DNA of 46,356 nucleotides from contig JBDGSL010000077.1 in NCBI GenBank assembly GCA_042217555.1, forward strand, positions 8,521-54,876, read 5' to 3'. This DNA is from Candidatus Nanohalobium sp. (GTDB taxonomy: Archaea; Nanohalarchaeota; Nanosalinia; Nanosalinales; Nanosalinaceae). Below are positions 30,744 through 46,356 of the stretch, in pieces. The translations under genes and the position numbers were made by a program. Positions within the stretch are counted from its first letter, which is position 1; every line of letters starts with the position of its first letter. The notes below the pieces were generated by a model. The model was not told where the DNA came from and ran no database searches. It worked only from the letters and a program-made list of their open reading frames with translations.

Positions 30744-31923
30744 AAAATACAGGCCTTCAACACTTTCAGAGTACAGAGGTGCTTCCAGCGAGAAGGAAGA
30801 GTTGCGAGAGTGGGCTGAGAGCTGGGAGCAGGGCGATAAACCTGTGCTGCTGCACGGCCAGGCCGGGACCGGGAAGACTTCACTGGTTGAAGCATTGGCG
30901 AACGACCTTGGTTTTGAACTGGTTGAGACCAACGCGTCGGACGTCCGGACTAAGAAAAAATTGAAGGAGGAGTTGAAGGAGGCGACGCGTCAGGCCTCGT
31001 TTTTCGGCGGGAAGAAACTGATACTTGTCGATGAAGTAGATGGTATGTCAGGGAACTCCGACAGAGGTGGTGTCCAGGAGATAGGACGTATCATCGATGA
31101 GTCCCGTTTTCCTGTTGTGATGACAGCGAACGATGCCTACGATCAGAGCATCCGTTCGTTAAGAAACAAGGCGAAGGAGATCAAGCTGGATTCCGTGCAT
31201 ACTAACAGCATAGCGGCTTATCTGCGTAAGATTCTTGACAATGAAGGAATTGAGTATGAGGATGGTGCTCCTAAGAGGATCGCCAGGAGTGCCGGAGGCC
31301 AGATGAGGTCAGCGATAAATGATCTTCAGGCAGCAGCACTTGGGAAAGACAGGTTAACCGTTGATGACGTGAAGCAGCAGGCCTCACGGGATGAAAGACA
31401 GGAAATCTTCGATGCGTTGAAGATAGTGTTCAAGACCACGACAGGTAAGACTGCGAACCAGGCTACGCAGAATCTGGATGAGGACGCGGATACGTTCCTG
31501 CAGTGGATCCGTGAGAACACACCGAGAGAATATGAGAGAGATAGGGATCTGGCCCGGGCGTATCACTGGATTTCCAGAGCGGATCTGTTTAACGGCCGTA
31601 TAAGGAAGAGGATGAACTGGAAACTGATGAAGTACGTGTTCCAGTTCTCCACCGTTGGAGTGGCTCTGGCCAAGGACGAGAAGTACAGCGGGTGGACGAA
31701 GTACCAGTATCCTTCGAAGATCAGGAGGATGGGAAGTTCCCGTGGCGCAAGGAACAGGCTGGACTCTATCTCAGGTAAGCTTGGAGAGAAGCTTCACATG
31801 TCGAAAAACGATGTTAAGGAGGACCTGCCGATGTTCGCTGACTTCCTGGAGAACTACGGAGATCTTCAGCACCAGCTGGAACTGGATGACGAGGAAGTCG
31901 AGTTCATAGAGGACTTCAGCTGA
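30733..31923 (+). CDS. rfcL: Replication factor C large subunit; probable start at ATC 30733
   Basis: GQAGTGKT, NASD, DEVDG. The conserved WTEKYRP lies in frame upstream of the ORF-track TTG start at 30802. Confidence 0.93.
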   Translation: MWTEKYRPSTLSEYRGASSEKEELREWAESWEQGDKPVLLHGQAGTGKTSLVEALANDLGFELVETNASDVRTKKKLKEELKEATRQASFFGGKKLILVDEVDGMSGNSDRGGVQEIGRIIDESRFPVVMTANDAYDQSIRSLRNKAKEIKLDSVHTNSIAAYLRKILDNEGIEYEDGAPKRIARSAGGQMRSAINDLQAAALGKDRLTVDDVKQQASRDERQEIFDALKIVFKTTTGKTANQATQNLDEDADTFLQWIRENTPREYERDRDLARAYHWISRADLFNGRIRKRMNWKLMKYVFQFSTVGVALAKDEKYSGWTKYQYPSKIRRMGSSRGARNRLDSISGKLGEKLHMSKNDVKEDLPMFADFLENYGDLQHQLELDDEEVEFIEDFS

Positions 31924-32242
31924 GGCACGGCGTCTCAATTCTTATGTCTGTGGACTGAAGCGTCACCGTTACACAGGGCTCCGTACTGTTGAACTCAACG
32001 CTTGTCCTGTAACCTTCCATGTAACCCGTCATCTTTCTGAAGTTCCGTTTCTCCTGTTCCGTTATATCTCCATCTCTTGTTATCTTCCCGGCCTCCTGTT
32101 TCAGGTTGTTCAAGTTCTTTGGCAGTTCATCCGTACTGAAATCCTGTGACTGCACATCGGCTATGACAGAGGATATAGCTATGGTTATCAGTCCAGCCAC
32201 CACTGCAGAAACTACCATGAACTGTCCCTTCATCTGCTCCAT
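31916..32242 (-). CDS. Pilin-like protein (class III signal peptide)
   Basis: MEQMKG|QFMVVSAVVAGLI. Confidence 0.75.
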   Translation of the reverse strand: MEQMKGQFMVVSAVVAGLITIAISSVIADVQSQDFSTDELPKNLNNLKQEAGKITRDGDITEQEKRNFRKMTGYMEGYRTSVEFNSTEPCVTVTLQSTDIRIETPCLS

Positions 32243-34005
32243 CTCAGATTCACCTCGTAAGGTATGTATGTCCTGTTCATTATACCGGAAACAGTAGTTG
32301 TTGATATATCCGCCGGGTTGTCACGGCCTCTGAAAGTTACCTTGTCGCCTCGCAGCCAGTGGATCAGGGATGCGACAAGCTTCCGATCCTGCCCGCCGTA
32401 CATGTTTTCGTAGCCTGCCACAGCCATTCTGTCTCCCTGAAAACCGGGGAAAGACGATCTAGTCGCTACCAGCTCCACATGCCTATCACCTACATAGGTA
32501 AAGCCTATGCACTCTCCCTCCGAACAGCCAGGGTTCTCCGAGGCAAGCTTCACATCAACAGCGTACTCTCTGTCAGCTATCCTCACCTTCTCGTAGTTGA
32601 GGTAGGGGCCGTCCCTACTGTCCTGGAAGTCTCCATCCCTGCCTACATCAACCATTATAGCCCTCGAGTTATTGCTGTTACAGTAGCTTTCAGAAGTTCC
32701 AAGCTCTGCGTTAAGTATTCCATAGACCTTCCCATCCGGGAACTCTATCTCTCCGTATCTTAATGCATCCGGGTCAGTGCCGTAACAGCTGCTTTCCGGC
32801 TTCCCCGGATAATTATCAGGGTCAACAGTTTTAAGCGATGAGTTAGTCCTGTTCCACTGTGAGAGATTGTAGTACTTTCCTGTGTTCTGGAAAACTGAGG
32901 GAACAGACTGTACAGTAGTCTCCGAGTTCGATATGACACCAGGAGAATACAGCTCTACATCGTTTTCTTCGCCGTTAAGGCCTTTGAAGTATGTCCTGAC
33001 ATCCTGAGAGCTTCTGGAATCCGAGAAACTTCCCTTTATCTCTCCTGTAGGCGGGTTCTCGTATCCCGTTTCAACCCTGTAGAAACCTGTTTGATCCATG
33101 AAACCTCCATCCTGAAACTGATCTGTGAAACCGGAAAGCACAAGCATAGAGCCGTCTTCACTCATGAAGTTTTTCACAGTACTGAGGTTTGATCCGTCGT
33201 TGATGTCTTCCACGCCAGCTTCGGTCCTGACAACAAGTACATTGAACCGTGAACCGTTTACCTCAGAGAAGTTAACCATATCAATAGAGGCAAATGTTTC
33301 AACGCTGTTCACAGGTTTTTCAAGCTCTTCACGGATCCTTACCGCCTGATCTGCCTTGTAGATATGCAGTTTCTCGTTGTTGACTCTTTCAAAGTCGTAG
33401 AAGTTGCCATCCCAGGAGAATATGTCTTCGAGGAAGTAAGGTCCTTCAGAGCTGGAGAACTGGCACCTGGTACCGTTGTCCACCCAGAGCGAATCGTAGT
33501 CTTTCTCACTGTTTCCTCCAGGATCTCTCGGGTCTATGTCCCCCAGGTAGATACTTGAGCTGTGGCCTGTTACAGGAGACGTGTTGGTCAGTACTTCGTA
33601 CTCGCTTCTCGGAGCTACCTGCTCCAGTTCGTCCTCCGAGCAACCTCCGCTGACATCTGAGACATTGTCCAGTTGTTGTACGTGACGATCCCTGGGTAAG
33701 GTGTAGAAAGCTACCAGGTTCTGCTTTATAGGCAGGTTGGATACGAGACCAGAGACTTCCGCCTTTCTCTCGCTGAGAGTGGTGAAGGCTGTCTGCATGG
33801 AACCTGTTTCTCCATGGCTGAGCGCATGGTCGATGTACCCTGTGGATTTAAGCGCGTAGGTAAGGTCGTCAGCGGCTACCTGTCGACGGAAAGAGTTCCA
33901 GTCCTGGTTGTCCGGAATATTGAGGCCGCCGAGAACAAATATGAATACGGTTGCCACGGCCACTATCGATTCCAGAGCGTATCCTATACCTTTCCTTCTT
34001 ACCAT
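32230..34005 (-). CDS. Large pilin-like/adhesin protein (class III signal peptide)
   Basis: MVRRKG|IGYALESIVAV; 591 aa. Confidence 0.7.
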   Translation of the reverse strand: MVRRKGIGYALESIVAVATVFIFVLGGLNIPDNQDWNSFRRQVAADDLTYALKSTGYIDHALSHGETGSMQTAFTTLSERKAEVSGLVSNLPIKQNLVAFYTLPRDRHVQQLDNVSDVSGGCSEDELEQVAPRSEYEVLTNTSPVTGHSSSIYLGDIDPRDPGGNSEKDYDSLWVDNGTRCQFSSSEGPYFLEDIFSWDGNFYDFERVNNEKLHIYKADQAVRIREELEKPVNSVETFASIDMVNFSEVNGSRFNVLVVRTEAGVEDINDGSNLSTVKNFMSEDGSMLVLSGFTDQFQDGGFMDQTGFYRVETGYENPPTGEIKGSFSDSRSSQDVRTYFKGLNGEENDVELYSPGVISNSETTVQSVPSVFQNTGKYYNLSQWNRTNSSLKTVDPDNYPGKPESSCYGTDPDALRYGEIEFPDGKVYGILNAELGTSESYCNSNNSRAIMVDVGRDGDFQDSRDGPYLNYEKVRIADREYAVDVKLASENPGCSEGECIGFTYVGDRHVELVATRSSFPGFQGDRMAVAGYENMYGGQDRKLVASLIHWLRGDKVTFRGRDNPADISTTTVSGIMNRTYIPYEVNLRWSR

Positions 34006-34832
34006 GCCAGCACCTCCATCCTTACAACTCCTCTGGACGTGCCCTGTGCATCAAGAGCAGCGAAACGGTTAATTTTTGTGACTGTTCCTGCATTCCCCGG
34101 GCGAGGACCGAAGCTTTTCAGATCGTTTTCCAGTATCACCGACGTACCCGGTTTTCTGAAACGGTTCTGAATCTTCTTCACGGTAAACGTATAACTTCCT
34201 ATATCCAGGTTTCCTCCTGGCCCTATACCCCCCGAGTTTTTAAAATCCCAGTCATCCGAGACGTAGACGGTGTCGTAGACACTGTTATGTGCTGTTACAA
34301 GGAATCGGTATTTTGTTCCTGAAACTTTAAGACTTCCGTAGTGTACCCTGTTATTTGCTGTAGCGTAAGTTGAGGTATCAGGTTCAGTGATTTTTGAAGG
34401 TGAATGGGTCTTGATGAAGCTTTTGCTGGTCTCGACGATCGGCATCCACGTGAAGTTGAAGAAGTACTGATGTTCCGGTTCTCTAAGGTCTCTAAACTGG
34501 CTGTAGTTGAACTTGTTCTGTCCTGTAGTGGAGATAGAGTCAAGCTTGTCCATGGATACAATGTGGTAGTCCGAGGCAAGGCCGAACTCGGTCGTGTTAG
34601 CCAGTGTTGAACTGTTTTTCTCCCAGTTGGTTCCTCCAGCGCCAAAGCTGTGTCTCCCCGGTTCCGTGATCATCTGATTTGTCACCGTGTATATCTCCAT
34701 GTTCCTCACTGACTGCTCTACATCGTTCTCAAACTGTGGTACCTTGTTAGATGCAACTGTTAGAGAAGCCATTATAACCAGTGTGAACATCAGCAGGCTT
34801 CCAAGAAACTCCAGTGTTGTCTGTCCCTTCAA
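33999..34832 (-). CDS. Pilin-like protein (class III signal peptide)
   Basis: MKG|QTTLEFLGSLLMF; TTG start. Confidence 0.8.
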   Translation of the reverse strand: MKGQTTLEFLGSLLMFTLVIMASLTVASNKVPQFENDVEQSVRNMEIYTVTNQMITEPGRHSFGAGGTNWEKNSSTLANTTEFGLASDYHIVSMDKLDSISTTGQNKFNYSQFRDLREPEHQYFFNFTWMPIVETSKSFIKTHSPSKITEPDTSTYATANNRVHYGSLKVSGTKYRFLVTAHNSVYDTVYVSDDWDFKNSGGIGPGGNLDIGSYTFTVKKIQNRFRKPGTSVILENDLKSFGPRPGNAGTVTKINRFAALDAQGTSRGVVRMEVLAW

Positions 34833-34838
34833 GATTTT

Positions 34839-35867
34839 CTACAACCCCATTGGCCTGACTATCAGCATGAATGCGATGAACGCCACAGGAAGCATTATGA
34901 TCGCGTGTTTGACACCTGCAGATGGACTTCCTTCACTTATCTGCCCGGCTACAGCCGCTGAACAACCTCCCTGCACTATCAGCATCGTGAACAGAAGTGA
35001 CTTGTAGTACGCCATCTTGCCGTATGCGTAGTTCGTAGCGTAGGTACTCCCAAGATCCGAGACATTAGAAGGTATGAAACCGAAGATCTTGGCCGTACTG
35101 CAGAAAGGACGGGCAGCAAGTATATCCTGGCCGCAGAAGTTGGTAGGTCCTGAACTCCCACCGCCAAGCATGTCCCCTACTCCCTGCAGGGCACCTGACT
35201 CCTGACTTCCCAGGCCCAGCAACTGGGAAAGCATGACGTAAATACCGACAGTGATACCTATGAACAACAGGTAGATGATATACATTATGAACAACTGCTG
35301 TTTAAGCTTTGAACGTTTATCCTGTAGAACCTCCTTCAACTGGGAAGCATTGTCCGCAACTGATTCTATAGTCTCCGTAATGTTTCCTCCGCTCTCAAAG
35401 CTCTGTATAATAATGGAAAGAGATTCCTGTATAACCGGTGAATCGCTCATCCTACGTGAAAACCTTTCCATGACGTCAGGGAAAGGAATACCCCATGTTA
35501 ACTGGTTGTAGACTTTCTCTATCTCAGAGTTCAAACGTCCGTAGTCAGTGTCTTTGGCCGATTCAAAAGACTTCAGTACTGTCATACCTCCTCTCTTCGA
35601 CTCTGCAAGATCATTGAGGAATGAAGGAAACTGGTCTTCCATCTCACGTATAGCCCGGTTCTTCAGGAAGCTTAAAAGGCCGTAAGGCAGTACAGCAGTT
35701 ATAAGACCGAGTATAACCAGTGATCCTCCAAACTGGACTGAACCACCCATGTATATAAACAGGCCTAAGATGCTCAGAACACCTCCAAGCCCGACAGAGG
35801 CAAATATGACCTTGTCCTCTACAGAGTAGCCGGCCTCGTACTCCTCCTCCTGGAAGAAGTCTATCAT
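34839..35867 (-). CDS. Type IV pilus/T2SS F-family membrane platform protein (TadC-like)
   Basis: EMEDQFPSFLNDLAES, YGRLNSE, WGIPF, SGG. Confidence 0.9.
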   Translation of the reverse strand: MIDFFQEEEYEAGYSVEDKVIFASVGLGGVLSILGLFIYMGGSVQFGGSLVILGLITAVLPYGLLSFLKNRAIREMEDQFPSFLNDLAESKRGGMTVLKSFESAKDTDYGRLNSEIEKVYNQLTWGIPFPDVMERFSRRMSDSPVIQESLSIIIQSFESGGNITETIESVADNASQLKEVLQDKRSKLKQQLFIMYIIYLLFIGITVGIYVMLSQLLGLGSQESGALQGVGDMLGGGSSGPTNFCGQDILAARPFCSTAKIFGFIPSNVSDLGSTYATNYAYGKMAYYKSLLFTMLIVQGGCSAAVAGQISEGSPSAGVKHAIIMLPVAFIAFMLIVRPMGL

Positions 35868-36739
35868 CTTATACCACCCGGCGACATGCCGTCAACAAGG
35901 ATTATAAACATTGCGGATACAACAGGAAGGCCGAAGAAGACAGCAGCCACCTGTATATTTACAAGCAGGGTTGGAGATAGACTTGATGAGAAGGAACTTA
36001 TGACTGCTGTCATCGAAGTAAATATTATAGATCCCACGATTATAAGAGTGATGTACATCTCTACCAGGAGTGAAAGCTGTTCCGAGAACTCTTTAATCCT
36101 TCTCTCGTAGTCGTCCATCAACCGGTCTGATCTTTCCTGCAGGAACTCCTTCAGCGAACCTCCTGTGGTTATAACATGGTTTATACCCCACATCAACTCC
36201 TTGAAGTCTTCACTCGGCGTCCTGTTCGCAGCTCTTTCCAGAGCCTCGCTTTCATCCATGCCAAAAGTTTCTATGTCACGTCGAATCTTTTCTGCTTCTT
36301 TCGACACCTCTCCGTACTCATCCACTTCTGCCAGGTTGCTGAAAACCTCAGGAAGGGAAGTACCTGTCCCTGCCAGCGTCGAAAGGTACATAGTGGCAAA
36401 AGGCAGCGTATCCCTTATCTTGGTGGCTCTGCTCTTCATGATTATACCTGGGTAAAGGTAGAAACCGCCGAAAGTAATCATAGACATGAATATACTGAGT
36501 ATAAGCCCTGTAACTATACCTGCTGCACCCATCGACACCGAGAGCATCAGGCCGAAAAACACCGATGAAGCGGCAAAAACTGCTCCCGAGGTGAAGATCA
36601 TCATGCTGATATACTCTGGCAGGGTCACCTTCACGTTAGCCTTGGAAAGAGTCGGCCTCAAACCTTCAAAATACTGTATAAGAGGGATAGCGAAGCTTCC
36701 CACGGCCCGGTAGCAGAACTCGGCGTAATCTTCAAGCAT
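35864..36739 (-). CDS. Type IV pilus/T2SS F-family membrane platform protein (TadB/C-like)
   Basis: LPFATMYLSTLA, YGEVSKE, RTPS, TTGG. Confidence 0.9.
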   Translation of the reverse strand: MLEDYAEFCYRAVGSFAIPLIQYFEGLRPTLSKANVKVTLPEYISMMIFTSGAVFAASSVFFGLMLSVSMGAAGIVTGLILSIFMSMITFGGFYLYPGIIMKSRATKIRDTLPFATMYLSTLAGTGTSLPEVFSNLAEVDEYGEVSKEAEKIRRDIETFGMDESEALERAANRTPSEDFKELMWGINHVITTGGSLKEFLQERSDRLMDDYERRIKEFSEQLSLLVEMYITLIIVGSIIFTSMTAVISSFSSSLSPTLLVNIQVAAVFFGLPVVSAMFIILVDGMSPGGIR

Positions 36740-38450
36740 CCCTAGGTTCTAATTCCTTCTCCTGAGCATTAAATGTTTGCCCTACCTTCTCCATAACCTC
36801 CTTCGGCTCGGAGTAATACCGTGAGATTATATCACCGACCTCCCTGTAATGCTTTATCTGCTCCTCCTGCATATAGTTCAGGACGTGCTGCTTGTTCCTT
36901 AAATCTCTTTTCAACTTCTCATGCTCCATACCGCTCTGATCCGCGATATTCTTCAACAGCATAGAGTCATTCTCCAAAGTATATTCATCACTGTCAGGAT
37001 CCCAACCGAAAACTTTGTTAGCCTCTATACCCTTCCTTTCATCGTACTCCATCACCTCATACAGCCCTGTGATACGTCTGATATACGTTCCCTCTCGCCT
37101 TATCCTCTTTATAAGCATGATGCAGTCCAGGGTCTCCACAAGGCTCGGAGAGAGATTAATAGGGTCAGTGGTAAGACGGTCCATAAGCATGTCCAGACTG
37201 TCAGCGTGGATAGTACTGAGGCCTGTGTGTCCTGTAGCCATCTGCTGGAAAAGGATGTAAGCCTCCTCACCACGGACCTCACCCACGATTATATATTCAG
37301 GGCGTTGACGCAGAGATTCCTTCAACAGGTTGTCCATTGACACCTCTCCACCGCCCTCAGCCGAGGAACCAAAACCGGAACGTGCGACCTCCGGCACCCA
37401 GTGATCGTGAGGAAGACGCAACTCCGGCGTATCCTCGATCGAAACAATCTTCTTCTCCGGCCGTATAAACAGTGACAGAGCGTTCAGCTGCGATGTCTTA
37501 CCTGCACCGGTAGTACCGCACACCAGCGTAGACATACCGTGCTCAACCAGTGTCCACAGATAGGAAAGCATCTGCGCGTTCTCCGTCTCGAAATCCATCA
37601 TATGCACAGGAGTCAGTGGATCCTCCGTGAAACGCCTGATAGTGAAGTTTGAACCCTTCCTTGCGATATCAGTCGCCAACGTGGCCTGTACACGTGAACC
37701 ATCAGGAAGAGAACCATCCAGCAAAGGACTGGAAACAGATATACTTCTTCCACACCGCTGCGCAAGCTTCATGACAAAACTGTTAAGCTCCTCAGGACTG
37801 TTCCACTCCACACTCGTCTTGACAGATCCATACTCAGGATTCCTGTGATACGCATAAACAGGTATATCAACACCGTCACAGGATATATCCTCGATCTCAG
37901 TGTCGTTCATAAGAGGCTGAAGTTTTCCAAGCCCGGCAAAATCCCTCTTAGTATAGTACCTTACGACCTCCCTCTGCCTGTCATCCAGAGAAATATCGTA
38001 CTTGTCAACTATCATGTCTATCTTGTCAGCCAGGTAATCATCCGCCTCCTGACCCTCTAACTGGCTGAAGTCCACGTCAAAGCTTCTCTCCATTATGTCC
38101 TGTATCCTTTCAACTTTATGCTCCAGATCCGGTGTCAGATCCGGTTCAACGACGTTATAGACCAGCTCTCCTGCTGCCTCATCCCAGGTTATATGGGCCC
38201 ACGCGTACACCAGTTCTCCTTCATCAGGGTCCTCAGGTACAAGAGGATACCTGACATCCACATCACTCAGGTCCTGATCGTCCTCTGTATCCTCAACGTA
38301 ACCTTCCCTGAACTCGCCCGGAACCGGGATCTCAACACCTTCAGTATGCCTTTTCTCCTTTTCTTCCTCGTCCTCTTCATACCATTCAGGGTGCTTCGCT
38401 TTCTGAAGACCCCGTATAATATTCAGCAAACCTGCACTGCCCATATTCAA
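36732..38450 (-). CDS. Type IV pilus assembly ATPase (TadA/VirB11/FlaI family)
   Basis: GTTGAGKT, SIEDTPEL, LRQRPEYIIVGEVRG, TGHTGLSTIHA. Confidence 0.95.
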   Translation of the reverse strand: MNMGSAGLLNIIRGLQKAKHPEWYEEDEEEKEKRHTEGVEIPVPGEFREGYVEDTEDDQDLSDVDVRYPLVPEDPDEGELVYAWAHITWDEAAGELVYNVVEPDLTPDLEHKVERIQDIMERSFDVDFSQLEGQEADDYLADKIDMIVDKYDISLDDRQREVVRYYTKRDFAGLGKLQPLMNDTEIEDISCDGVDIPVYAYHRNPEYGSVKTSVEWNSPEELNSFVMKLAQRCGRSISVSSPLLDGSLPDGSRVQATLATDIARKGSNFTIRRFTEDPLTPVHMMDFETENAQMLSYLWTLVEHGMSTLVCGTTGAGKTSQLNALSLFIRPEKKIVSIEDTPELRLPHDHWVPEVARSGFGSSAEGGGEVSMDNLLKESLRQRPEYIIVGEVRGEEAYILFQQMATGHTGLSTIHADSLDMLMDRLTTDPINLSPSLVETLDCIMLIKRIRREGTYIRRITGLYEVMEYDERKGIEANKVFGWDPDSDEYTLENDSMLLKNIADQSGMEHEKLKRDLRNKQHVLNYMQEEQIKHYREVGDIISRYYSEPKEVMEKVGQTFNAQEKELEPRDA

Positions 38451-38860
38451 CCACTCCTCACAGACATTTTGTTACCTCTCTTGAAAATAGTTACGTCTCC
38501 ACCCTCTACACTGCCCTCCAGATCATACCTGTGGAAACCCTTCAGGTCAAAACTGTAGGACCTATCAGTCATCTCCAGCACAAGGTCATCCCCCAGTTCA
38601 ATACTGTAGGACTTTCCGGCAAGCGTATCCGGCAGCTCAACAGAGTACCTGCCGGAACCGTAACTACTCCGCGTATCGGCCTCCTTCAAAACGTTCATAC
38701 CTGAAACCAGCTTGGACTGTATCATCTCTGCCTGGGCCGGCTCCGAAGTAGAGACAACCTCTACACGGTACTGGTTGAACAGCACTATAACACCTACAGC
38801 CACCATAAGGCCAAGTCCAAAAGTAAAGACCGTTTCAACCGCAAGATACTGACCTTTCAA
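38447..38860 (-). CDS. Pilin-like protein (class III signal peptide)
   Basis: MKG|QYLAVETVFTFGLGL. Confidence 0.8.
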   Translation of the reverse strand: MKGQYLAVETVFTFGLGLMVAVGVIVLFNQYRVEVVSTSEPAQAEMIQSKLVSGMNVLKEADTRSSYGSGRYSVELPDTLAGKSYSIELGDDLVLEMTDRSYSFDLKGFHRYDLEGSVEGGDVTIFKRGNKMSVRSG

Positions 38861-38869
38861 AGAAAAACT

Positions 38870-39526
38870 TCACCTCAGATCAACGCTTACCACGTTCTTC
38901 ACACGGTCAATACGTTCACCGCCTGGAAGCAGGTAGCCATCGTCACCTCTATCGACCTGACGCCCCTCGTTTGTGAAATGTATCTCGACCTCTCCATTGG
39001 CTTTACTTGCACCTATAGACTGAAGATCAATCTGTCTCAACTCCGCTCCCGAGGGAGTGCTCGCCTTCAGATTTCTGAACTCCACACGGTACCTTACCAC
39101 AGGATTACCGGAAGAATCTCTCCTGACAGCGACCACGCCCGGCGTATTCACTCCCTGAATACCGTAATCACCGGACCCCACGGAAAGACCCTGCCTGTTA
39201 CTTCCATGTATCAACCTCCAGGAACCTACAGGATACTGAGCGCCCTCGGCAAAAGTAGTCAATTCAAGATAGTTACCTGAAGAGTTAACCTCGATACCTC
39301 CATTACCAAGATCCAAAGTCACCGTGTCACTGCTTCCCTGACCGCTCCTAGCCACTGAAAGCATGGACTGCTCCAACCCAATCACCGAAGACTCAAGACT
39401 GTCAAGCTGAGACTGACTCTGCCTCTTCTCCACCAGAGGCACACCCCAGACATATGCAGAAGCAACTCCTAAAACCATAACACCGGTGATCATAACCGCA
39501 GTAACGGCCTGAGTCTGTCCCTTCAT
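38870..39526 (-). CDS. Pilin-like protein (class III signal peptide)
   Basis: MKG|QTQAVTAVMITGV. Confidence 0.8.
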   Translation of the reverse strand: MKGQTQAVTAVMITGVMVLGVASAYVWGVPLVEKRQSQSQLDSLESSVIGLEQSMLSVARSGQGSSDTVTLDLGNGGIEVNSSGNYLELTTFAEGAQYPVGSWRLIHGSNRQGLSVGSGDYGIQGVNTPGVVAVRRDSSGNPVVRYRVEFRNLKASTPSGAELRQIDLQSIGASKANGEVEIHFTNEGRQVDRGDDGYLLPGGERIDRVKNVVSVDLR

Positions 39527-39612
39527 ACATCCAACAATTACACATACTCATTAAAAAAGAACCGGAAAACACTACAGAGAAAAAGAAATGGGAAAAAGAT
39601 AGGTAGGTTTAG

Positions 39613-40146
39613 TCAGCAGACAGGGCTGCTGGAAGAGGTAGGTTCACACTCCTTAGTCCACGAATTACTTCCTCCCTGCACGTTAACCTGCATACCCACG
39701 TACGTCGTGGCTTCAGGCCACTTGACATTAGTATCACACGTGTAGGACTCTCCAGGATCCAGGATCACACCTGTGCGGGAATCACTGAAACATGTCGCGG
39801 ACGCGCCCGAAGCCTTATCTATATTGGCAAGAGGCAAGGTGCTGAACGGAACTGAGCTCCCTGATCCAGCCTCATCAGGGTAGTACTGTATCTGAAGCAT
39901 TTTGGACGTGTTTATAGTGACTGAATCCTGCTTGTTGGTGATGGTAAGGTTCATCTCATTGTCGTTGTTCTTGCTTACGGCTGTTATCTGTATAGCTGTC
40001 TGCCGCGCCTTTGTATTGAACTGTGTATTTCCCTGGTCCGCGATGTTCTGGAACTGTGTGTAAACCACTCCGACCGCACCGACTGTTACAAGTAAGAGCA
40101 GCACGATCGCGATAACCGGTGTTATACCTTTGCGTTTCTCAAACAT
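39613..40146 (-). CDS. Archaeal type IV pilin (candidate major pilin)
   Basis: MFEKRKG|ITPVIAIVLLLLVTV; has its own TATA-like box and GAGGAG RBS upstream. Confidence 0.88.
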   Translation of the reverse strand: MFEKRKGITPVIAIVLLLLVTVGAVGVVYTQFQNIADQGNTQFNTKARQTAIQITAVSKNNDNEMNLTITNKQDSVTINTSKMLQIQYYPDEAGSGSSVPFSTLPLANIDKASGASATCFSDSRTGVILDPGESYTCDTNVKWPEATTYVGMQVNVQGGSNSWTKECEPTSSSSPVC

Positions 40147-40208
40147 AGTATTCTCCTCTATAAAGTCTAGATGCGTTCCACCGGTTTATATAAGTTCCAG
40201 TAAGGTTT

Positions 40209-40703
40209 TCAGCGTTGACAGCGGCCGTCATGACTGAAACAGATATAGTTAGCCTGGACGCCGTAAGGCCCTGTCAGCTTGACATCAACAGTACTTCCTG
40301 TAGACGGGAAGCTCTTCGTGGTGTTAAGCCTTAAAACAGAGCCCGGATCCAGAAGCACTTTACTCTGTGAACCGTACCCGCTTCCACTTACATAGTCCCA
40401 GTCCTGAGGAATGCCGTCAAGATACATGTTAAGTGTTTTATTACCGTCCTCTTCAACTGTTAATGTACGGGAGCCAGTATTACGCAGGTCAAGAAGCAGG
40501 TAACCGTCTGTACCGTTCAAACCGTAGTCGAAACCTATCTCAGAGCTTTTCTGCCTATCTTCCTGGGTAAGCCAGTCATCAACACTGCCCTGCATATCAT
40601 CCATCAGATCAGATATGAATATAGCTGCGGAAGAAACCGCGGTTATAGATATACCCAGCAACAGTACAGTTGCTACTACCTGAGAAACTCCTTTACTGCT
40701 CAT
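40209..40703 (-). CDS. Archaeal pilin/archaellin-like protein
   Basis: Probable start ATG at 40703: MSSKG|VSQVVATVLLLGI; LRNTGS motif. Confidence 0.8.
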   Translation of the reverse strand: MSSKGVSQVVATVLLLGISITAVSSAAIFISDLMDDMQGSVDDWLTQEDRQKSSEIGFDYGLNGTDGYLLLDLRNTGSRTLTVEEDGNKTLNMYLDGIPQDWDYVSGSGYGSQSKVLLDPGSVLRLNTTKSFPSTGSTVDVKLTGPYGVQANYICFSHDGRCQR

Positions 40704-41409
40704 CTGTCTTGTTAAACCGTTTACGGAGCTGTTCCATCCTGTCAGAGTTATCAGAGCCGAGATCAAGATCTGTTCCGGCACCTCCACTGTCTGAGGCCTC
40801 CATTGAACGCCCCGTATTCATTTCCTGGGAGGTATGGCCTCCTCTCTGCTGCGAACCCTGTCTCTGCTGTGGCTGCCCCTGCTGCTGTGACTGTGACCTG
40901 GTGTTGGAACGTGATACAAGCCCTTCCTTGTTCTGCGACGCGTAACTTTTCCTGAGACTTTCATTTATCTCGTTAAGGTGCTCTACTACCTGCTGATTGG
41001 ACTGTCTCATATCCTCTGCTACATCATCCATCTTTGTCCCGATAGCTTCGGCGATACGTTGCTCCATATCACCAAGCATCTCCCCCTCCATATCCATCTC
41101 GGAGGCCTCCGTCAGCAGATCCATGAACGTGTTCATGTTGTCGATGACATCATCCATCTTGTGGGTCAGGTCCTCAACCGAGTTCTTCAGTTCATGGGTC
41201 GACTCGGTCATATCGTTGACGATCTTCTGATTTGACTTCATTATATCCAGGACGTCCCTCACCAGTTCATCATCAGCACCCCCTCCCTGAGAATTCTGCT
41301 CCTGTAGTTCATCTACCCTTCTTTCCAGCTTCCTTAGAGGGCCGACCGGGACAACCTCGTAATCATCACCGGCAGCCTTACCACCAAGCTCAACTTCGTC
41401 TTCAGACAT
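40693..41409 (-). CDS. Acidic coiled-coil protein heading the pilus locus
   Basis: YEVVPVGPLRKLERRV, heptad pattern, Q-rich tail; overlaps the next pilin gene. Confidence 0.75.
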   Translation of the reverse strand: MSEDEVELGGKAAGDDYEVVPVGPLRKLERRVDELQEQNSQGGGADDELVRDVLDIMKSNQKIVNDMTESTHELKNSVEDLTHKMDDVIDNMNTFMDLLTEASEMDMEGEMLGDMEQRIAEAIGTKMDDVAEDMRQSNQQVVEHLNEINESLRKSYASQNKEGLVSRSNTRSQSQQQGQPQQRQGSQQRGGHTSQEMNTGRSMEASDSGGAGTDLDLGSDNSDRMEQLRKRFNKTDEQ

Positions 41410-41547
41410 AATTTTTTAGACCTCTATAACACCAAAAAATTGGCTTCCCCTGTATAAATAAGGCAGGGATGCAGAGAAACAGAGAGAAAAGGTCAGAGAA
41501 AAAAGGAGGTGGAAAAGAAGGAGGGAAGAAATTACAGAGACGGAAGA

Positions 41548-41707
41548 TCACATCACTCCTCCCAGCCGAAAATCAGAGATTTTCTGAGAGGTTAGAAGAT
41601 GTTCAGTTTTTCAACCCCACATCATCCCGCCCAGCCGAAAATCAGAGATTTCTGTGTGCGCAGAAACTGCAAAGCAGTTTCGAGTGGCGGGATTACATCA
41701 TCCCGCC
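41548..41707 (-). repeat. Triplicated thermosome 3' end with interspersed hairpins
   Basis: Minus strand GGCGGGATGATGTAA (41707-41693), GGCGGGATGATGTGG (41631-41617) and GGAGGAGTGATGTGA (41562-41548). The last two are each preceded by CAGAAA(A)TC-TCT-GATTTTCGGCTG. Confidence 0.85.
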
Positions 41708-43351
41708 AGGCATGCCGCCTCCCATTCCACCTGGGCCTCCTGCTGGTGGGCCGCCAGCTTCTTCTCCGCCGGAGCCGGATGCGGAGATTACGTCATCGAT
41801 TCTTAGAATCATCTCAGCTGCTTCAGAAGCAGAGGAAACGGCCTGTGTCTTTGTCTTCTGTGGCTCGACTACTCCTTCGTCGAAGAGTTTTTCGCTTTCG
41901 CCGGAGGTGACGTCGATTCCGGCCCAGGTCTCTCCATCGTCATGCTTGTTTCTGAGGTCGACAAGTGTGTCGATCGGATCGTATCCTGCGTTTTCACTCA
42001 GTGTTCTTGGAATTATCTCCAGTGCGTCAGCGAATGCGTTGATCGCGAGCTGTTCTCTTCCTCCTACGCTGTCTGCGTAGTCTCGGAGTTCTTGGGCCAG
42101 TTCGACTTCTGTTGCTCCTCCTCCTCCTACTACTCTTCCGTTGCGGAGAGCGGAGCTTACGCCGCCGATTGCGTCTTCCATCGCTCTCTCGATTTCATCC
42201 ACTACGTGTTCTGTTCCTCCTCTGATAAGGATGGAAACGCTTCTGGCTTCCGGACATTCCTGTACGAACGTCATGGAGTCACCACCGACTTTTCTCTGCT
42301 CTACTGTTCCTGCATTTCCCAGGTCTTCTGATTCTATTTCGTTAATGCTTGTTACGATGTTTGCATTGGTTGCACGGGCAAGCTTGTCCATGTCGTTGCT
42401 GCTTACTCTTCTTACTGCGTATACTCCTTTCTTGGCCAGGTAGTGCTGTGCGATGTCGTCGATTCCTTTCTGACAGAGGACTACGTCCGCTCCTGCGTCA
42501 TCGAGTGATTCAACCATCTCCTTGAGCTGTTCTTCCTCCTGTTCTACGAAGTTCTTCATCTGGCTTGGGTCAGATATGTTGATTTCTGCGTCCGTCTCGG
42601 TTTCTTTTACTTCGATAGCAGAGTCAAGCAGTGCGATATTTGCATCGTCAACTCTATCTGGCATTCCACCGTGGACTTTCTCCTTGTCAAGGATGACGCC
42701 GTTCACAAGCTCAGTGTCCTCTACAGATGCTCCTTCGTTTTTCTCCAGCTTGATCATGTCCCTGTCGATAACGAACTCGTCGTCTCTTTCCTCTGCTACG
42801 CCTTTCACGGCGTCAACAGCTACTTCGGCAAGGTAATCCCTGGCCGTCTCAGCGGATTTACCGGTCATGGCCGTCATAGCAACCTTCTGAAGCACGTCAT
42901 CGTCAGAAAGATCGACATCTTCAGCTATATCGTCCAGTACCTTATCAGCTCTCTCACGGGCCAGTCTGTAACCCTTTGTTATCACTGTTGGATGAATCTC
43001 CTGATCCAGCAGGTCCTCAGCCTGCTTCAGAAGTTCGCCGGCAAGTACGACAGCAGTAGTGGTTCCATCGCCGACCTCTTCCTCCTGTGTCTCGGCGACC
43101 TCAACCATCATCTCGGCCGCAGGATGATCCAGATCTATTTCTTCCAGTATCGTTACACCGTCGTTTGTCACCACGAGATCGCCGACAGAATCAACCATCA
43201 TCTTGTCCATTCCTTTCGGACCCAGCGTGGTTCTCACGGCTTTTGAAACAGATTTACACGCGTTAATATTGTTTTCCTGAGCGTCTTCTCCAGTAGTTCT
43301 TTCCGCATCTTCAGACATTATGAAAACCGGTTGACCACCTAGTCCTGCCAT
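41693..43351 (-). CDS. thsA: Thermosome subunit (group II chaperonin)
   Basis: [27 protein letters not shown]-rich tail. Confidence 0.97.
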
Positions 43352-43402
43352 TAGTTAATTCACCTATTTTTATTGATGTATGTAAAAATATTAAAAGTTG
43401 CC

Positions 43403-44420
43403 CTACCCTCTGAGCTCACCCCGATATTCCCGCCTGAGATTTTCTGTATCGGCATGTTCAGCATGCCCCCTCCAAGACGCGATCGACTGCCGGAGCTCTT
43501 GAAAAGAAAGCTCGCCATTCTTCAGCTCTCCTTTTTGTCTGCTCAATCTTCTCTTAAACTTCAACTTGTTTCTTTTCCTAAGCAGTAGGTAATGTGGAAA
43601 AACCCTGTAACCGAGAAAAGTAGCTCCTTTCTCGATAGGCTCCAACGTAGTTTTAGAATCCGGCAAATCCAGTTCCAGTTCGCTCTCGAGGTAGCCCTGC
43701 ATCGCATCCTTTAAACCGTGAAGCCTGTTCTTTGAATCTGATAAAAGGATGAAATCATCCATATACCGGATATAATAGGATGCCTCCAAAGACTGTTTCA
43801 CAAAGTGATCGAATCTGTCAAGATAAATATTTGCGAAAAGCTGAGAGTAGAGGGTGCCAATCGGCATACCTTTATTTTCTCCTATGTTAGAGCTATAATT
43901 TTCCAAAAATTTCTTCACTAACCACAACACTCGTTCATCAGAGACTTTTCTGCCTACCTCCTGAACCAAAATACTGTGATCAACAGAGTCAAAGTAAGCC
44001 CGAATATCGCATTTAAGATAGTAATCCGTATCCTGTTTCCGCATAAAGCCTTGAAGCCTATCAACACCTGCATGAGTACCCTTGTTAGGCCTACAGGCGT
44101 AAGTATCGTAAATAAACCGTTTCTCGAATATCGGTTCTAAAACTCTGTGAAGGCTTCTATGAACTACTCTATCCCGGAAATAAGGCGCCGAAATCTCTCT
44201 TTCCTTAGGGTCAAATAAAGTAAAATTCTTGAAACCTTTTGGACAATAACTTTTCGACTCAAGCTGCCTTGACAACTCCAAAATATTCGATTCCAGATCA
44301 CTGGAAAATTTTACAACCTTCTCCCTTGAACCGTTTACCTTTTCGAGCATCTCTATAACCTTTGTAAAGAGACTCGAAGGAAGAAATACTTTGGAAAAGA
44401 TCTGAAAACTTTTTCGGCAT
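43403..44420 (-). pseudogene. DGR-type reverse transcriptase with a +1 frameshift near 44323-44325
   Basis: ATG at 44420 gives MPKKFSDLFQSISSFESLYKGYRDARKGKRFK, which continues in another frame as EKVVKFSSDLESNI...PKEREISAPYFRDRVVH...YLKCDIRAYFDSVDH...GMPIGTLYSQLFANIYL...YIRYMDDF. IGxxxSQ is the DGR RT motif. Confidence 0.9.
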
Positions 44421-44700
44421 AAAAATTCTATTTTATCGCTGGGCTTCGGCGTTCCCTCAAAGAAGTTTATTGATTGAGGTCATCGGTACTTGCCGTCGCA
44501 CCAGCAATTGACTGATTTTCGCCCTTTGGATCTTGGGCAGGGAAGAATCGCATCCTTAGGATGCTCAAACCCCTAAGTGAATAGAGGTAGGCCGCAGTTC
44601 TCCCTCCTTACAGGCTTTCGCCTCCGCAACCCGTAGGTTGGAAAGATCTTCACCCTCACAGACAAAACGCTGTTCAACCACCAAGCAATTTGCTTGATGT
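44421..44700 (-). ncRNA. Structured non-coding region upstream of the RT (putative DGR spacer RNA)
   Basis: Minus-strand hairpins: CAAGCA-AAT-TGCTTG, CAACC-TACG-GGTTG (UNCG loop), AGGC-GAAA-GCCT (GNRA loop), GCATCC-TAA-GGATGC, GCCC...GGGC, CCTCAA...TTGAGG, GCTGG...CCAGC. Confidence 0.55.
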
Positions 44701-44711
44701 TCGGGAGGACA

Positions 44712-44758
44712 CGAAACTCTCCGAGTTTCTAGGTCCAGAAAACGCTACGGCGTTTTCG
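44712..44758 (-). promoter_or_regulatory. Two hairpins immediately 3' of the variable region (putative DGR homing/cruciform signal)
   Basis: GAAAACGC-CGTA-GCGTTTTC spans the stop codon; GAAACTC-GGA-GAGTTTC has a GRA-type triloop. Confidence 0.7.
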
Positions 44759-46034
44759 CACAACGGAACCCGATGGTCCAGCGCGTGTTCGATGGCGCGT
44801 TGTGCAGGAGCGCCGAGAACACGCCTGCGTCCCGGCCATCGCCCCAGTGCCCGCCACGTTGCACGGCAGAGACGTTATAGTACTCACCGTTACCCAAACT
44901 TCCTTCTCCATAGGTCTGATCGCCGTTCAGGTAGATACGGCCGATACCCTGATCGGCGTTCCAAGTAGAGTTCGTACCAGAACTTGAAGGCATACCATTC
45001 CAGGAAGTAATCTCGTTTAACTCGTTCCACGCCTCGTTACCCGGATTACCGTTCACACGTGGAGACTGGTACTTCCCGTTCAAGGTCTTGAAACTGTTAC
45101 TTGTCCACTCCCAGACATTACCTGAGAGATCCCAGACTTTCTCACCGTTCGCCAACTCCAATGTACGCTTTGTAGCATTACTCTGGCTAGGATCAGGATT
45201 CGGCCCATTGTAACTTACAGAGTTACTGTTCCCTGTGTTACCTGAATACAGGCCTCCACCACTGCTGATCGTGGAACCAACAACTCCGTCAGCCCAGTTA
45301 TCAGGGTTGACAGCGGCCTGATGGGCTACAGCCATCCACTGCCTGCCGGAAACCAGAGAAGCGCCGATACTACGACACTTCTTCATTGCCTGTGTCTGGT
45401 TGATGTTCCTGTAAATGCTGACTCCAGGCTTGGAAACCGGTGTACCGCCACTATTCCTCGCCTCATACTTCATCAAGTAAAAATCACTCATGCCCGAAGT
45501 ATCCATATACCTGTCCGGAGTCTTCGAAACATCCACGAATACCCATTCACCGTTACCAGGCTCTGCTTTTTCTGTGTTGAGTTCTATGTTGCCTGTGATT
45601 GTTCCTTCTGCTACGAGGTTGTTGAGGCCGCCAATATCGTAGTTGACCTTGCTACCGACCTTGTTCCTGGTACCGGTCTGGGCCAGTCCAATCACACCGA
45701 AGGAAGACTTCTGACCGATCGGCAAAGTCTTACCTGGTTTAACAACCGTCTCCGTGTTTCCATCCTCGGAGACCAAGGTTACTTTATCGATATGTATTTG
45801 ATCCATGCCCTTATTCCTCAAAACCATCTGAAAACCTGAACCGGTAAAACCACTCTGAACAAAACCCAGATCACCCTGCTCAAAACCACTAGACTGAATT
45901 TCAGCCTGACCCTGAATCGTAGTAAAAATACTCCCACCAACAATAGCAATCACAAGAAGCATCCAACCATAAGTGGTCAAATACTCAATCGCAGACTGTC
46001 CTTTCGAAGTTCTCAAAGATCGTGTGTGTAACAC
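44745..46034 (-). CDS. DGR target protein: class III signal peptide/pilin-like N-terminus plus FGE-type C-type lectin domain
   Basis: SKG|QSAIEYLTTYGWMLLVIAIV; FYLMKYEA; WDLSGNVWEW; C-terminal RGGHW...AGVF...IGFRC. Confidence 0.9.
   Translation of the reverse strand: MLHTRSLRTSKGQSAIEYLTTYGWMLLVIAIVGGSIFTTIQGQAEIQSSGFEQGDLGFVQSGFTGSGFQMVLRNKGMDQIHIDKVTLVSEDGNTETVVKPGKTLPIGQKSSFGVIGLAQTGTRNKVGSKVNYDIGGLNNLVAEGTITGNIELNTEKAEPGNGEWVFVDVSKTPDRYMDTSGMSDFYLMKYEARNSGGTPVSKPGVSIYRNINQTQAMKKCRSIGASLVSGRQWMAVAHQAAVNPDNWADGVVGSTISSGGGLYSGNTGNSNSVSYNGPNPDPSQSNATKRTLELANGEKVWDLSGNVWEWTSNSFKTLNGKYQSPRVNGNPGNEAWNELNEITSWNGMPSSSGTNSTWNADQGIGRIYLNGDQTYGEGSLGNGEYYNVSAVQRGGHWGDGRDAGVFSALLHNAPSNTRWTIGFRCAKTP
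44758..44867 (-). other. Putative DGR variable region (VR)
   Basis: Encodes AVQRGGHWGDGRDAGVFSALLHNAPSNTRWTIGFRCA. By my count 77/110 nt are G+C and only 15 are A on the coding strand. Several variable-position codons are NNC/NNT (CAC, GGC, GAT, GAC, CTC, CAC, CGC, ACC), as expected from AAC/AAT template codons. Confidence 0.75.
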
Positions 46035-46122
46035 TTTGATAATTCACCACCTTGAAGTGATAGCAATGACGTAACTGTCATAAATACTCCTTCCCGGCTT
46101 CAGCATTTAAACTTTAGGCAAG

Positions 46123-46356
46123 TCAGTCAACACGATCCTCCAGTTCTTCCTGTAGAATCCGGGAGATTGTTGCTCCATCTGCTTCAACCTTCTGCTGGAG
46201 GACTCCCATCAAAGGGCCTTGTGCGTGCATACCTTGCTCCTCCACCATATCGGATTTCTCGTCCAATACTTCTCGAACTTCTTCACGGATCTCTTCTTCT
46301 ACCATTTTGGAGTTGAGAACTGCTTCTATGGCTTCTTCCGGATTCTTGTCTGCCAT
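46123..46356 (-). CDS. gatE: Glu-tRNA(Gln) amidotransferase subunit E, C-terminal part (partial)
   Basis: EEQGMHAQGPLMG...ADGATISRIL resembles the Yqey-like tail of GatE/GatB; truncated by the window end. Confidence 0.7.
   Translation of the reverse strand: MADKNPEEAIEAVLNSKMVEEEIREEVREVLDEKSDMVEEQGMHAQGPLMGVLQQKVEADGATISRILQEELEDRVD

Follow-up and report, generated by a model that had tools for sequence, protein, structure and literature searches.

A likely inactive diversity-generating retroelement beside its intact target gene, a predicted type IV pilin-lectin fusion, in a nanohaloarchaeon

This study concerns a stretch of 46,356 nucleotides (nt) from Candidatus Nanohalobium sp. (assembly GCA_042217555.1, contig JBDGSL010000077.1, positions 8,521 to 54,876), hereafter called the window, and in particular the locus near its right end, where a reverse transcriptase (RT) gene of the kind found in diversity-generating retroelements (DGRs) follows the gene of a putative DGR target protein (Table 1). 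The long open reading frame (ORF) of the RT, 315 amino acids (aa) in length, begins 395 nt beyond the target ORF, and the 325 nt between the target stop codon and the RT start hold two hairpins, a piece matching the tip of related template repeats (TRs) and a spacer remnant. The named close homologues of both target and RT are nanohaloarchaeal, in agreement with an earlier interpretation made from the letters of the window alone (the sequence-only reading), which had taken the DNA to be that of a probable nanohaloarchaeon.

The sequence-only reading had described the target as a 429-aa protein with a class III (prepilin) signal and a hydrophobic helix at its start and a C-type lectin (CLec) variable region of the formylglycine-generating enzyme (FGE) type at its end, and the class III scan and structure prediction that it had proposed bore this out, with the motif passing and both a pilin and a CLec fold recovered. 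The ORF translation opens with KG-QSAIEY followed by the hydrophobic helix, and the protein matches the Pfam family FGE-sulfatase (PF03781, E 8.8e-6). When the CLec domain was folded separately from the pilin part with an 83-sequence alignment, the best structural match of the resulting model was the DGR variable protein TaqVP (5vf4; Foldseek E 2e-9, root-mean-square deviation (rmsd) 3.2, 234 residues aligned), which outranked PvdO, TvpA, Mtd and the FGEs (Z 13.7 for TvpA, 2y3c, and 13.5 for Mtd, 1yu0). The whole target has only two cysteines, C220 and C425, both invariant across the family. A reading as an FGE enzyme was rejected on the lack of a catalytic cysteine pair in the C-terminal region, which we take to be the position of that pair in FGEs, and on the rank of TaqVP above the FGEs. 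The target also looks like a mosaic (window 44745-46034 compared with loci L030, L024, L021 and L023): its pilin half is nearest to the targets of two relatives, G003 and G033, and its CLec half is nearest to non-pilin targets on contig C86 of the same genome and in relative G012, a pattern that suggests domain exchange near an MKYEA motif.

The N-terminal part of the target is a predicted archaeal type IV pilin, of the kind encoded by a second type IV pilus operon elsewhere in the genome. In a scan with our own FlaFind-like pattern, used in place of the FlaFind program, 17 of 1596 ORFs passed, the target included (KG, then QS..E and a hydrophobic segment). For the globular domain behind the helix, the top structural match was 8fk7, a subunit of a type IV pilus from Pyrobaculum (Z 9.2, rmsd 2.7 over 92 aligned residues). 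A close relationship was found on contig C12, where a gene for a 159-aa pilin lies directly behind an ATPase-TadC-TadC set, that is, in a second type IV pilus operon; the first 30 residues of the mature target are identical to this pilin at 28 positions and to the counterpart operon pilins of G003 and G033 at 28 and 27 positions, respectively. The fusion holds the entire operon pilin of ~150 residues and not merely its signal. A candidate A24 prepilin peptidase, which would cleave the signal, was found on contig C74 as an Atlas look-alike (0.94, TM 0.86), and neither Pfam nor NCBIfam gave a match to this protein. In G033, a DGR cassette lies 0.6 kb from a homologue of the candidate peptidase, with one ORF between them (L023:6787-7683).

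The RT is of the DGR type. As the sequence-only reading had noted from its IGxxxSQ and YMDD motifs, the ORF downstream of the target contains GMPIGTLYSQ and IRYMDD, and it matches RVT_1 (E 1.4e-24). Its best match in the PDB is 8ub7 (E 3e-51), which we take to be the RT of the Bordetella phage DGR, and the next, at 1e-24, is an RT of the group II intron type. The tree that had been proposed with DGR, group II intron and retron RTs was built in reduced form, with 13 rows that included DGR references and group II intron RTs and with retrons left out. There, the RT groups with four nanohaloarchaeal RTs (100/99) within a branch that also holds the RTs of ANMV-1, BMP-1 and Mushu (100/100), and the group II intron RTs fall outside this branch; the DGR placement apart from group II introns thereby held. 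A group II intron RT, the top NCBIfam label though below the cut-off, was rejected in view of the order of the PDB matches, the presence of the SQ motif and the position in the tree. Among 70 genomes of the phylum, 6 were found to have RTs of this kind, the source genome included. Against a phage collection, the top-ranked match of the RT was that of ANMV-1 (41.6%); among 80 RT loci kept from viral contigs, identity was at most 46%, and the target pattern was not matched on viral contigs.

The frame of this RT is broken. The conserved N-terminus begins at an ATG that precedes the long ORF by 70 nt and is out of frame with it, and the 33 codons that this ATG opens are 64-76% identical to the N-termini of close RTs in all seven that were aligned. 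These seven, of the eight closest (a partial one was left out), are 333-337 aa long and 73-83% identical to the window RT. The frameshift is not peculiar to the source assembly, because a contig from sequencing run X1 matches positions 44187-44496 without a difference, frameshift included.

The 3' end of the target gene carries likely marks of past DGR activity. Codons of the variable region (VR) that face AAY in three related TRs keep their third base at 9 of 9, 10 of 10 (TR of G003) and 9 of 9 positions, and their first two bases are changed at 7 of 9, 8 of 10 (again G003) and 7 of 9; since the three TRs, all of them non-cognate, are related to one another, these counts amount to one observation. 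From this pattern, the tip of the lectin was likely diversified in the past by a DGR. Hairpins after the VR, also part of the sequence-only reading, were found, and the pair is more stable than expected (z -3.59; 1 of 200 shuffles equally stable). Twin hairpins also follow the VR on C86 and a remote VR of G003, and do not follow the in-cassette targets of G003 and G033. A comparison of five close proteins gave 2.07 residues per column in the VR against 1.54-1.79 in the body, a modest difference that carries little weight.

A DGR requires a TR. There is no copy of the VR within positions 36000-46356, and the search with a repeat finder, blastn and an adenine-tolerant scan yielded no cognate TR; in the scan, which took in all 88 contigs of the genome, the only hits besides the window VR were a TR on contig C38 and the VR on C86. 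There is no avd at the locus, and the only PF22296 match of the genome is on C38. Service in trans by the C38 DGR was considered and rejected: the window VR and the C38 TR differ at 12 A and 13 non-A positions over 96 nt. The intergenic remnants are most simply read as the outcome of a deletion that began at hairpin 2, ended at the TR tip and would have taken a four-helix ORF, avd and the TR.

What the undamaged element may have looked like is suggested by relatives. Complete pilin-CLec DGRs with adenine-specific TR/VR mismatches exist in two related genomes, G003 and G033, which belong to two genera and contain the target, a four-helix ORF, avd, TR, spacer and an intact RT. The A/non-A mismatches are 15/1 in G003, 18/2 for a remote second target of G003 and 17/0 in G033, and the window RT is 61-64% identical to the RTs of complete cassettes. 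Two metagenomic contigs carry the target and the four-helix ORF (L041 also avd) up to the contig end. About 24 full-length homologues of the target have the pilin start in common, with the last 35 residues variable between fixed positions. An ORF of ~124 aa lies between target and avd in all complete cassettes and is 80% identical across three genomes (L029:37-411; L021:10252-10647; L023:9644-10021); without a Pfam or NCBIfam match at E 0.05, it resembles a four-helix-bundle protein by eye and is possibly a second accessory factor.

Taken together, the mode of action would be, or would have been, that of a surface lectin that a DGR diversifies and a type IV pilin carries, and the window copy is decayed. 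More specifically, we think it probable that this is a DGR cassette stripped of TR and avd and with a frameshifted RT, likely inactive, whose predicted pilin-CLec target is intact and had its tip diversified in the past. Among the parts of a functional DGR, the locus lacks a cognate TR, avd and an intact RT frame and retains a DGR-clade RT and a C-terminal CLec VR with a downstream hairpin. Of the DGR with a pilin-lectin target described by the sequence-only reading, the DGR-type RT, the pilin-CLec fusion and the 3' VR stood, and the same fusion occurs in the complete DGRs of relatives; a working DGR at this site did not stand. Because TR and avd are lost and the RT is frameshifted, the window target cannot be called hypervariable now, as it had been.

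Table 1. Features of the DGR locus and its surroundings in the window, all on the reverse strand
Feature	Position	Strand	Remarks
Target gene	44745..46034	-	429 aa, open frame; class III-type signal, pilin domain and CLec domain with 3' VR
CLec domain, FGE-type	44748..45569	-	Residues 156-429; model pLDDT (predicted local distance difference test) 89.4; best match TaqVP 5vf4, Z 20.0
Predicted class III signal and pilin alpha-1 helix	45909..46034	-	Cut expected between G12 and Q13 (+1); E at +5
Pilin globular beta-sandwich	45588..45878	-	Residues 53-149; best match Pyrobaculum type IV pilus subunit 8fk7
(AC)4 tract	46022..46029	-	8 nt, directly behind the GTG start codon and in frame; relatives have longer tracts that switch the frame
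VR (orphan)	44758..44867	-	Segment like an initiation of mutagenic homing site at its end; AAY-facing codons with base 3 kept, bases 1-2 mostly changed
Hairpin 1	44738..44757	-	8-bp stem; overlaps the stop codon
Hairpin 2	44713..44729	-	7-bp stem, GGA triloop
10-nt remnant, 3' tip of related TRs	44703..44712	-	Putative deletion junction
TR-to-RT spacer remnant (3' part of DGR RNA)	44434..44666	-	nhmmer profile of four related spacers, E 1e-8
DGR RT gene	43403..44420	-	Frameshifted near 44320; 33-codon N-terminus from ATG 44420, remainder in the 43403-44350 frame
Thermosome gene	41693..43351	-	Flank of the insertion site, outside the element
gatE 3' end	46123..46356	-	Opposite flank, truncated where the contig ends
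Neighbouring type IV pilus locus	31916..40787	-	ATPase at 36732-38450, two TadC genes and six genes of pilin-like type

An active DGR at this site that hypermutates an adhesin of the neighbouring pilus operon, as the sequence-only reading had it, would account for the RT motifs, the VR, the hairpins and a pilus locus only 2-2.6 kb away. That locus does lie where it had been placed, past the thermosome about 2 kb from the RT, with its ATPase, two TadC genes and pilins, and its first pilin-like gene ends 2.6 kb from the RT. The link between the two was not supported. The cassette is an insertion, because gatE and the thermosome gene are adjacent in most relatives. A thermosome match was present in 46 family genomes, from which 30 loci were extracted; 29 of these belong to relatives, and 26 include 1.5 kb of upstream sequence. 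The end of gatE is no more than 110 nt from the thermosome in 17 of these 26, is 286-1347 nt away in four and was not seen in five. In all 26, the 1.5 kb before the thermosome are free of RT and CLec genes, and in the window the thermosome-upstream sequence is kept immediately after the RT stop. The thermosome-pilus linkage is conserved without a DGR in relatives, including G003 and G033, whose own cassettes lie about 170 kb and about 270 kb, respectively, from the nearest pilus ATPase. Finally, the target helix shares only 1-6 of 30 residues with the six pilin-like genes of the neighbouring locus, against the 28 of 30 shared with the C12 pilin. One relative speaks for the link: G023 (L112) carries another pilin fusion of the QSAIEY type at the identical gatE-thermosome junction. 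With TR and avd absent and the RT frameshifted in addition, we regard an active, locally linked DGR as highly improbable, and on these sequence comparisons the neighbouring pilus locus is probably incidental and not the system of the target. Two further features were seen around the thermosome gene. A 238-aa coiled-coil-like ORF (40693-41409) in the thermosome-pilus interval keeps its position in most relatives and has weak matches only (ArlX, E 0.027), and a 34-nt direct repeat, 91% identical and 69 nt apart (41549-41651), lies just 3' of the thermosome gene. A bacterial promoter scan at the locus, with a model unsuited to archaea, gave chance level only.

Several points weigh against a decayed DGR with a pilin-type target. 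On the side of decay, X1 is possibly the source sample and hence not an independent witness to the frameshift; a contig of run X2 is one base short at 44320, giving an in-frame RT allele in a related population; and the genome comes in 88 contigs at 94% completeness, so that a cognate TR on an unassembled piece is conceivable. On the side of the pilin, the full-length AlphaFold model of the target, built with six sequences, is weak (pLDDT 38.9), and the pilin domain alone is usable; the Z of 9.2 for an Ig-like sandwich, a common fold, exceeds that of the next, unrelated folds (7.8) only modestly; the Pfam class III signal model PF04021 matches neither the target N-terminus nor the C12 operon pilin; and class III signals also occur on proteins outside filaments, for example sugar-binding proteins, in the part of the literature covered (PMC2910488).

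The first group of points feeds the idea that the decay is specific to a strain or an effect of assembly, with the cognate TR and avd elsewhere in the population or unassembled and the target still diversified in cis or in trans. Besides the in-frame allele of X2, this idea draws on the summed contig depth of X1, which is ~100 over 44792-45015 and 48 just upstream, so that several variant contigs are possible; on the tendency of DGR repeats to break assemblies, with C38 and C86 both ending near their DGR parts; and on the remote targets known from the lineage (G003), which also carry twin hairpins. However, the junction is not a collapse of VR and TR, because the VR is separated from the TR tip by both hairpins. 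The frameshift recurs in X1, where the depth is 52.3 both at 44619-44646 and at 44745, which would fit a single junction-crossing contig; its depth of ~90 over parts of the RT makes the excess at the VR unspecific; and the non-A mismatches to the sole assembled TR, given above, also speak against diversification in trans. We therefore consider a still-diversified target unlikely, and the decayed cassette remains our preferred reading.

The second group bears on a separate question, namely whether the target is a filament subunit or a surface lectin with a class III signal that is anchored in the membrane or S-layer (bindosome-like). Such an arrangement is suggested by the presence of class III signals on substrate-binding proteins and proteases, as stated in the portion of PMC2910488 covered, by the scattered sites at which the same N-terminal module is joined to LamG, to PKD or to some other domain, and by the second DGR target of this genome, on C86, which has no class III motif. 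The retention of the whole ~150-residue operon pilin with a near-identical helix argues the other way, and an anchored lectin is, in our view, possible but doubtful. For the preferred pilin subunit, cleavage and incorporation into a filament are predictions from sequence. As to profile coverage, Pfam and NCBIfam gave no pilin match for the first 60 residues of the target or for the C12 operon pilin; another gene of the C12 cluster matches PF04021 weakly (E 0.0024), and the Atlas puts the C12 operon pilin among look-alike DPANN clusters, in one of which 25% of members carry PF04021. The pilin module recurs alone or fused to LamG/CARDB or PKD-like domains on C12 (three copies), C31, C76 (two), C70 and C1, the last being a remnant of 28 residues whose (CA)6 tract is out of frame, and two relatives have 14 and 17 matches to it.

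Expression of the family may be under a further control. Within the 90 nt before the KG-QSAIEY-type motif, a (CA)n tract of at least four units occurs in 7 of 8 pilin-CLec genes (two near-identical alleles among them), compared with 3 of the 37 remaining long fusions, 1 of the 66 short pilins and a chance level of 0.13% of random windows. With the frame read from the nearest start codon to the tract, two allelic pairs have opposite frames at the tract: L041 on and L042 off (98.6% identical), and L074 on and L078 off (95.8%). Phase variation through this tract is therefore likely in the family as judged from these alleles; the tract of the window gene itself is short, 8 nt, and in frame. An on/off tract would also suit the hiding of a receptor, and cellular DGR targets have been suggested to vary in a virus-host arms race (Roux et al., PMC8144416, in the part of that paper covered). 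The variation could by this account serve escape from, or decoying of, pilus-binding viruses rather than the choice of a host. Against this, variation in the target would be limited to the ligand-binding face of a CLec fold, an adhesin-like pattern that is established for Mtd and TvpA. We rate virus escape as quite unlikely and retain host binding as the preferred function.

With respect to known systems, the nearest is that of Ca. Nanohalobium constans, for which a DGR with CLec targets of the FGE subclass and a role in host interaction have been put forward (La Cono et al. 2020, PMC7443923; this paper was covered in part). For one of its genes, LC1Nh_0008, peptides of the product are listed there for biomass (8) and for the secretome (13), and by our own reading of the sequence in the table of that paper this gene begins with codons for KG-QSAIEY. 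Proteins labelled Ca. Nanohalobium constans are 38-40% identical to the window target, and this record was not treated as independent of the relatives' genomes compared above. The two systems thus share a nanohaloarchaeal DGR, an FGE-type CLec target and a KG-QSAIEY start, but that of Ca. Nanohalobium constans is annotated with avd and RT, whereas the window locus has neither TR nor avd and its RT is broken. The main text of PMC7443923 mentions no pilin or class III feature ("pili" gives 0 matches; the SI Appendix text and Fig. S12 are outside this scope). Within the text covered, a Nanohalobium DGR with CLec targets and its proposed part in host interaction are known, and the pilin fusion is not described. 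A role of the target in host recognition or host switching is plausible, and has already been proposed in print for the Nanohalobium DGR.

In Bacteroides, DGRs have been shown experimentally to diversify CLec-type tip adhesins of type V pili (bioRxiv 10.1101/2024.11.15.621889, covered in part). A DGR acting on the CLec-type tip of a pilus subunit is common to both cases, but the Bacteroides pili are of type V, lipoprotein-derived and bacterial, while the pilin encoded by the window is, to judge from sequence and fold, archaeal, of type IV and equipped with a class III signal. TaqVP (5vf4), TvpA (2y3c) and Mtd (1yu0) have the FGE-type CLec fold with a C-terminal VR, as does the target; their matches leave its pilin domain uncovered, and its VR is orphaned. 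The nanoarchaeal DUSEL4 and ANMV-1 DGRs (Paul et al. 2015, PMC4372165) resemble the present one in belonging to DPANN archaea and in a GRA-triloop hairpin at or near the target end, and the part of the text covered describes no pilin-type target for them ("pili" and "flagell" give 0 matches). The DUF361/QXSXE type IV pilins of methanococci, from what was covered of PMC2910488 and PMC4858521, likewise have Q at +1, E at +5 and an operon with one ATPase and two TadC; they differ in that the motif here is QSAIE, PF04021 misses the target and a CLec fusion is not described in that text. A G-type pilin domain is listed among rare DGR targets in a literature passage, and our literature search, which did not extend to Paul et al. 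2017, found no paper on a DGR-diversified archaeal type IV pilin. [quoted passage not shown] Those with VR-like ends include four with a flagellin-like N-terminus and CLec (P0036, P0041, P0045, P0046) and three with a bacterial prepilin N-methyl start and CLec (P0052, P0061, P0064). A search for Nanoarchaeota-type targets centred on one genome, G060, found none. A full-length pilin-CLec homologue with 34% identity and a VR-like end is entered for Haloplanus salinus (P0023, RCU47018.1), a haloarchaeon and thus of the host lineage; this entry may reflect transfer or contamination.

The same genome contains an apparently intact second DGR on contig C38 (C38:1-2293, L029), with a four-helix ORF, avd, TR, spacer and a 332-aa RT. 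Its TR pairs with the VR on C86, from which it differs over 109 nt at 18 A positions and 1 non-A position. The cognate target (C86:1625-2821, L030), a CLec protein of 398 aa, lacks a class III motif; a short (AC)4 tract stands before it and twin hairpins come after it. A 577-aa protein (C6:15290-17023) has a more distant CLec end without a VR match in the TR scan and is possibly an ancient, fixed target.

A course of events that would fit the window locus begins with insertion of a cassette of target, four-helix ORF, avd, TR, spacer and RT, as in G003 and G033, between gatE and the thermosome promoter, followed by diversification of the VR through adenine-specific retrohoming. Everything from hairpin 2 to the 3' tip of the TR would then have been lost, and a one-base frameshift would have broken the RT. 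The remaining protein would be cut after KG by the A24 peptidase and, through the shared QSAIEY helix, could co-assemble as a minor subunit of the second-operon (C12) pilus, displaying one fixed CLec variant that probably binds the surface of a haloarchaeal host. In relatives, the tip is still tied to a complete DGR, and on-off control of the gene probably lies with the (CA)n tract. Extending this to the family, we propose a two-layer device for host choice on the type IV pilus, in which a copy of the operon pilin bears a CLec tip rewritten by the DGR and is switched by the (CA)n tract among the codons of the signal peptide, and in which strains like the present one lock a successful tip by TR deletion and RT decay; this is offered tentatively, as an idea that we think somewhat more apt to fail than to hold.

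For the choice of hosts by DPANN episymbionts, a DGR target made up of a full operon-pilin copy and a CLec tip is a concrete candidate for a host-recognition protein. A cultured nanohaloarchaeon makes a homologue, according to the proteome rows of PMC7443923, and the candidate is therefore testable. Archaeal DGR targets described without recognisable anchors, in the part of PMC8144416 covered, may likewise carry class III signals that standard profiles miss. As a likely frozen relic, the window copy is of less weight in itself, and it provides a natural contrast to strains with an intact allele. If the two-layer device is true, the pilin- and flagellin-CLec fusions of Nanoarchaeota and CPR bacteria would represent a common strategy of episymbionts.

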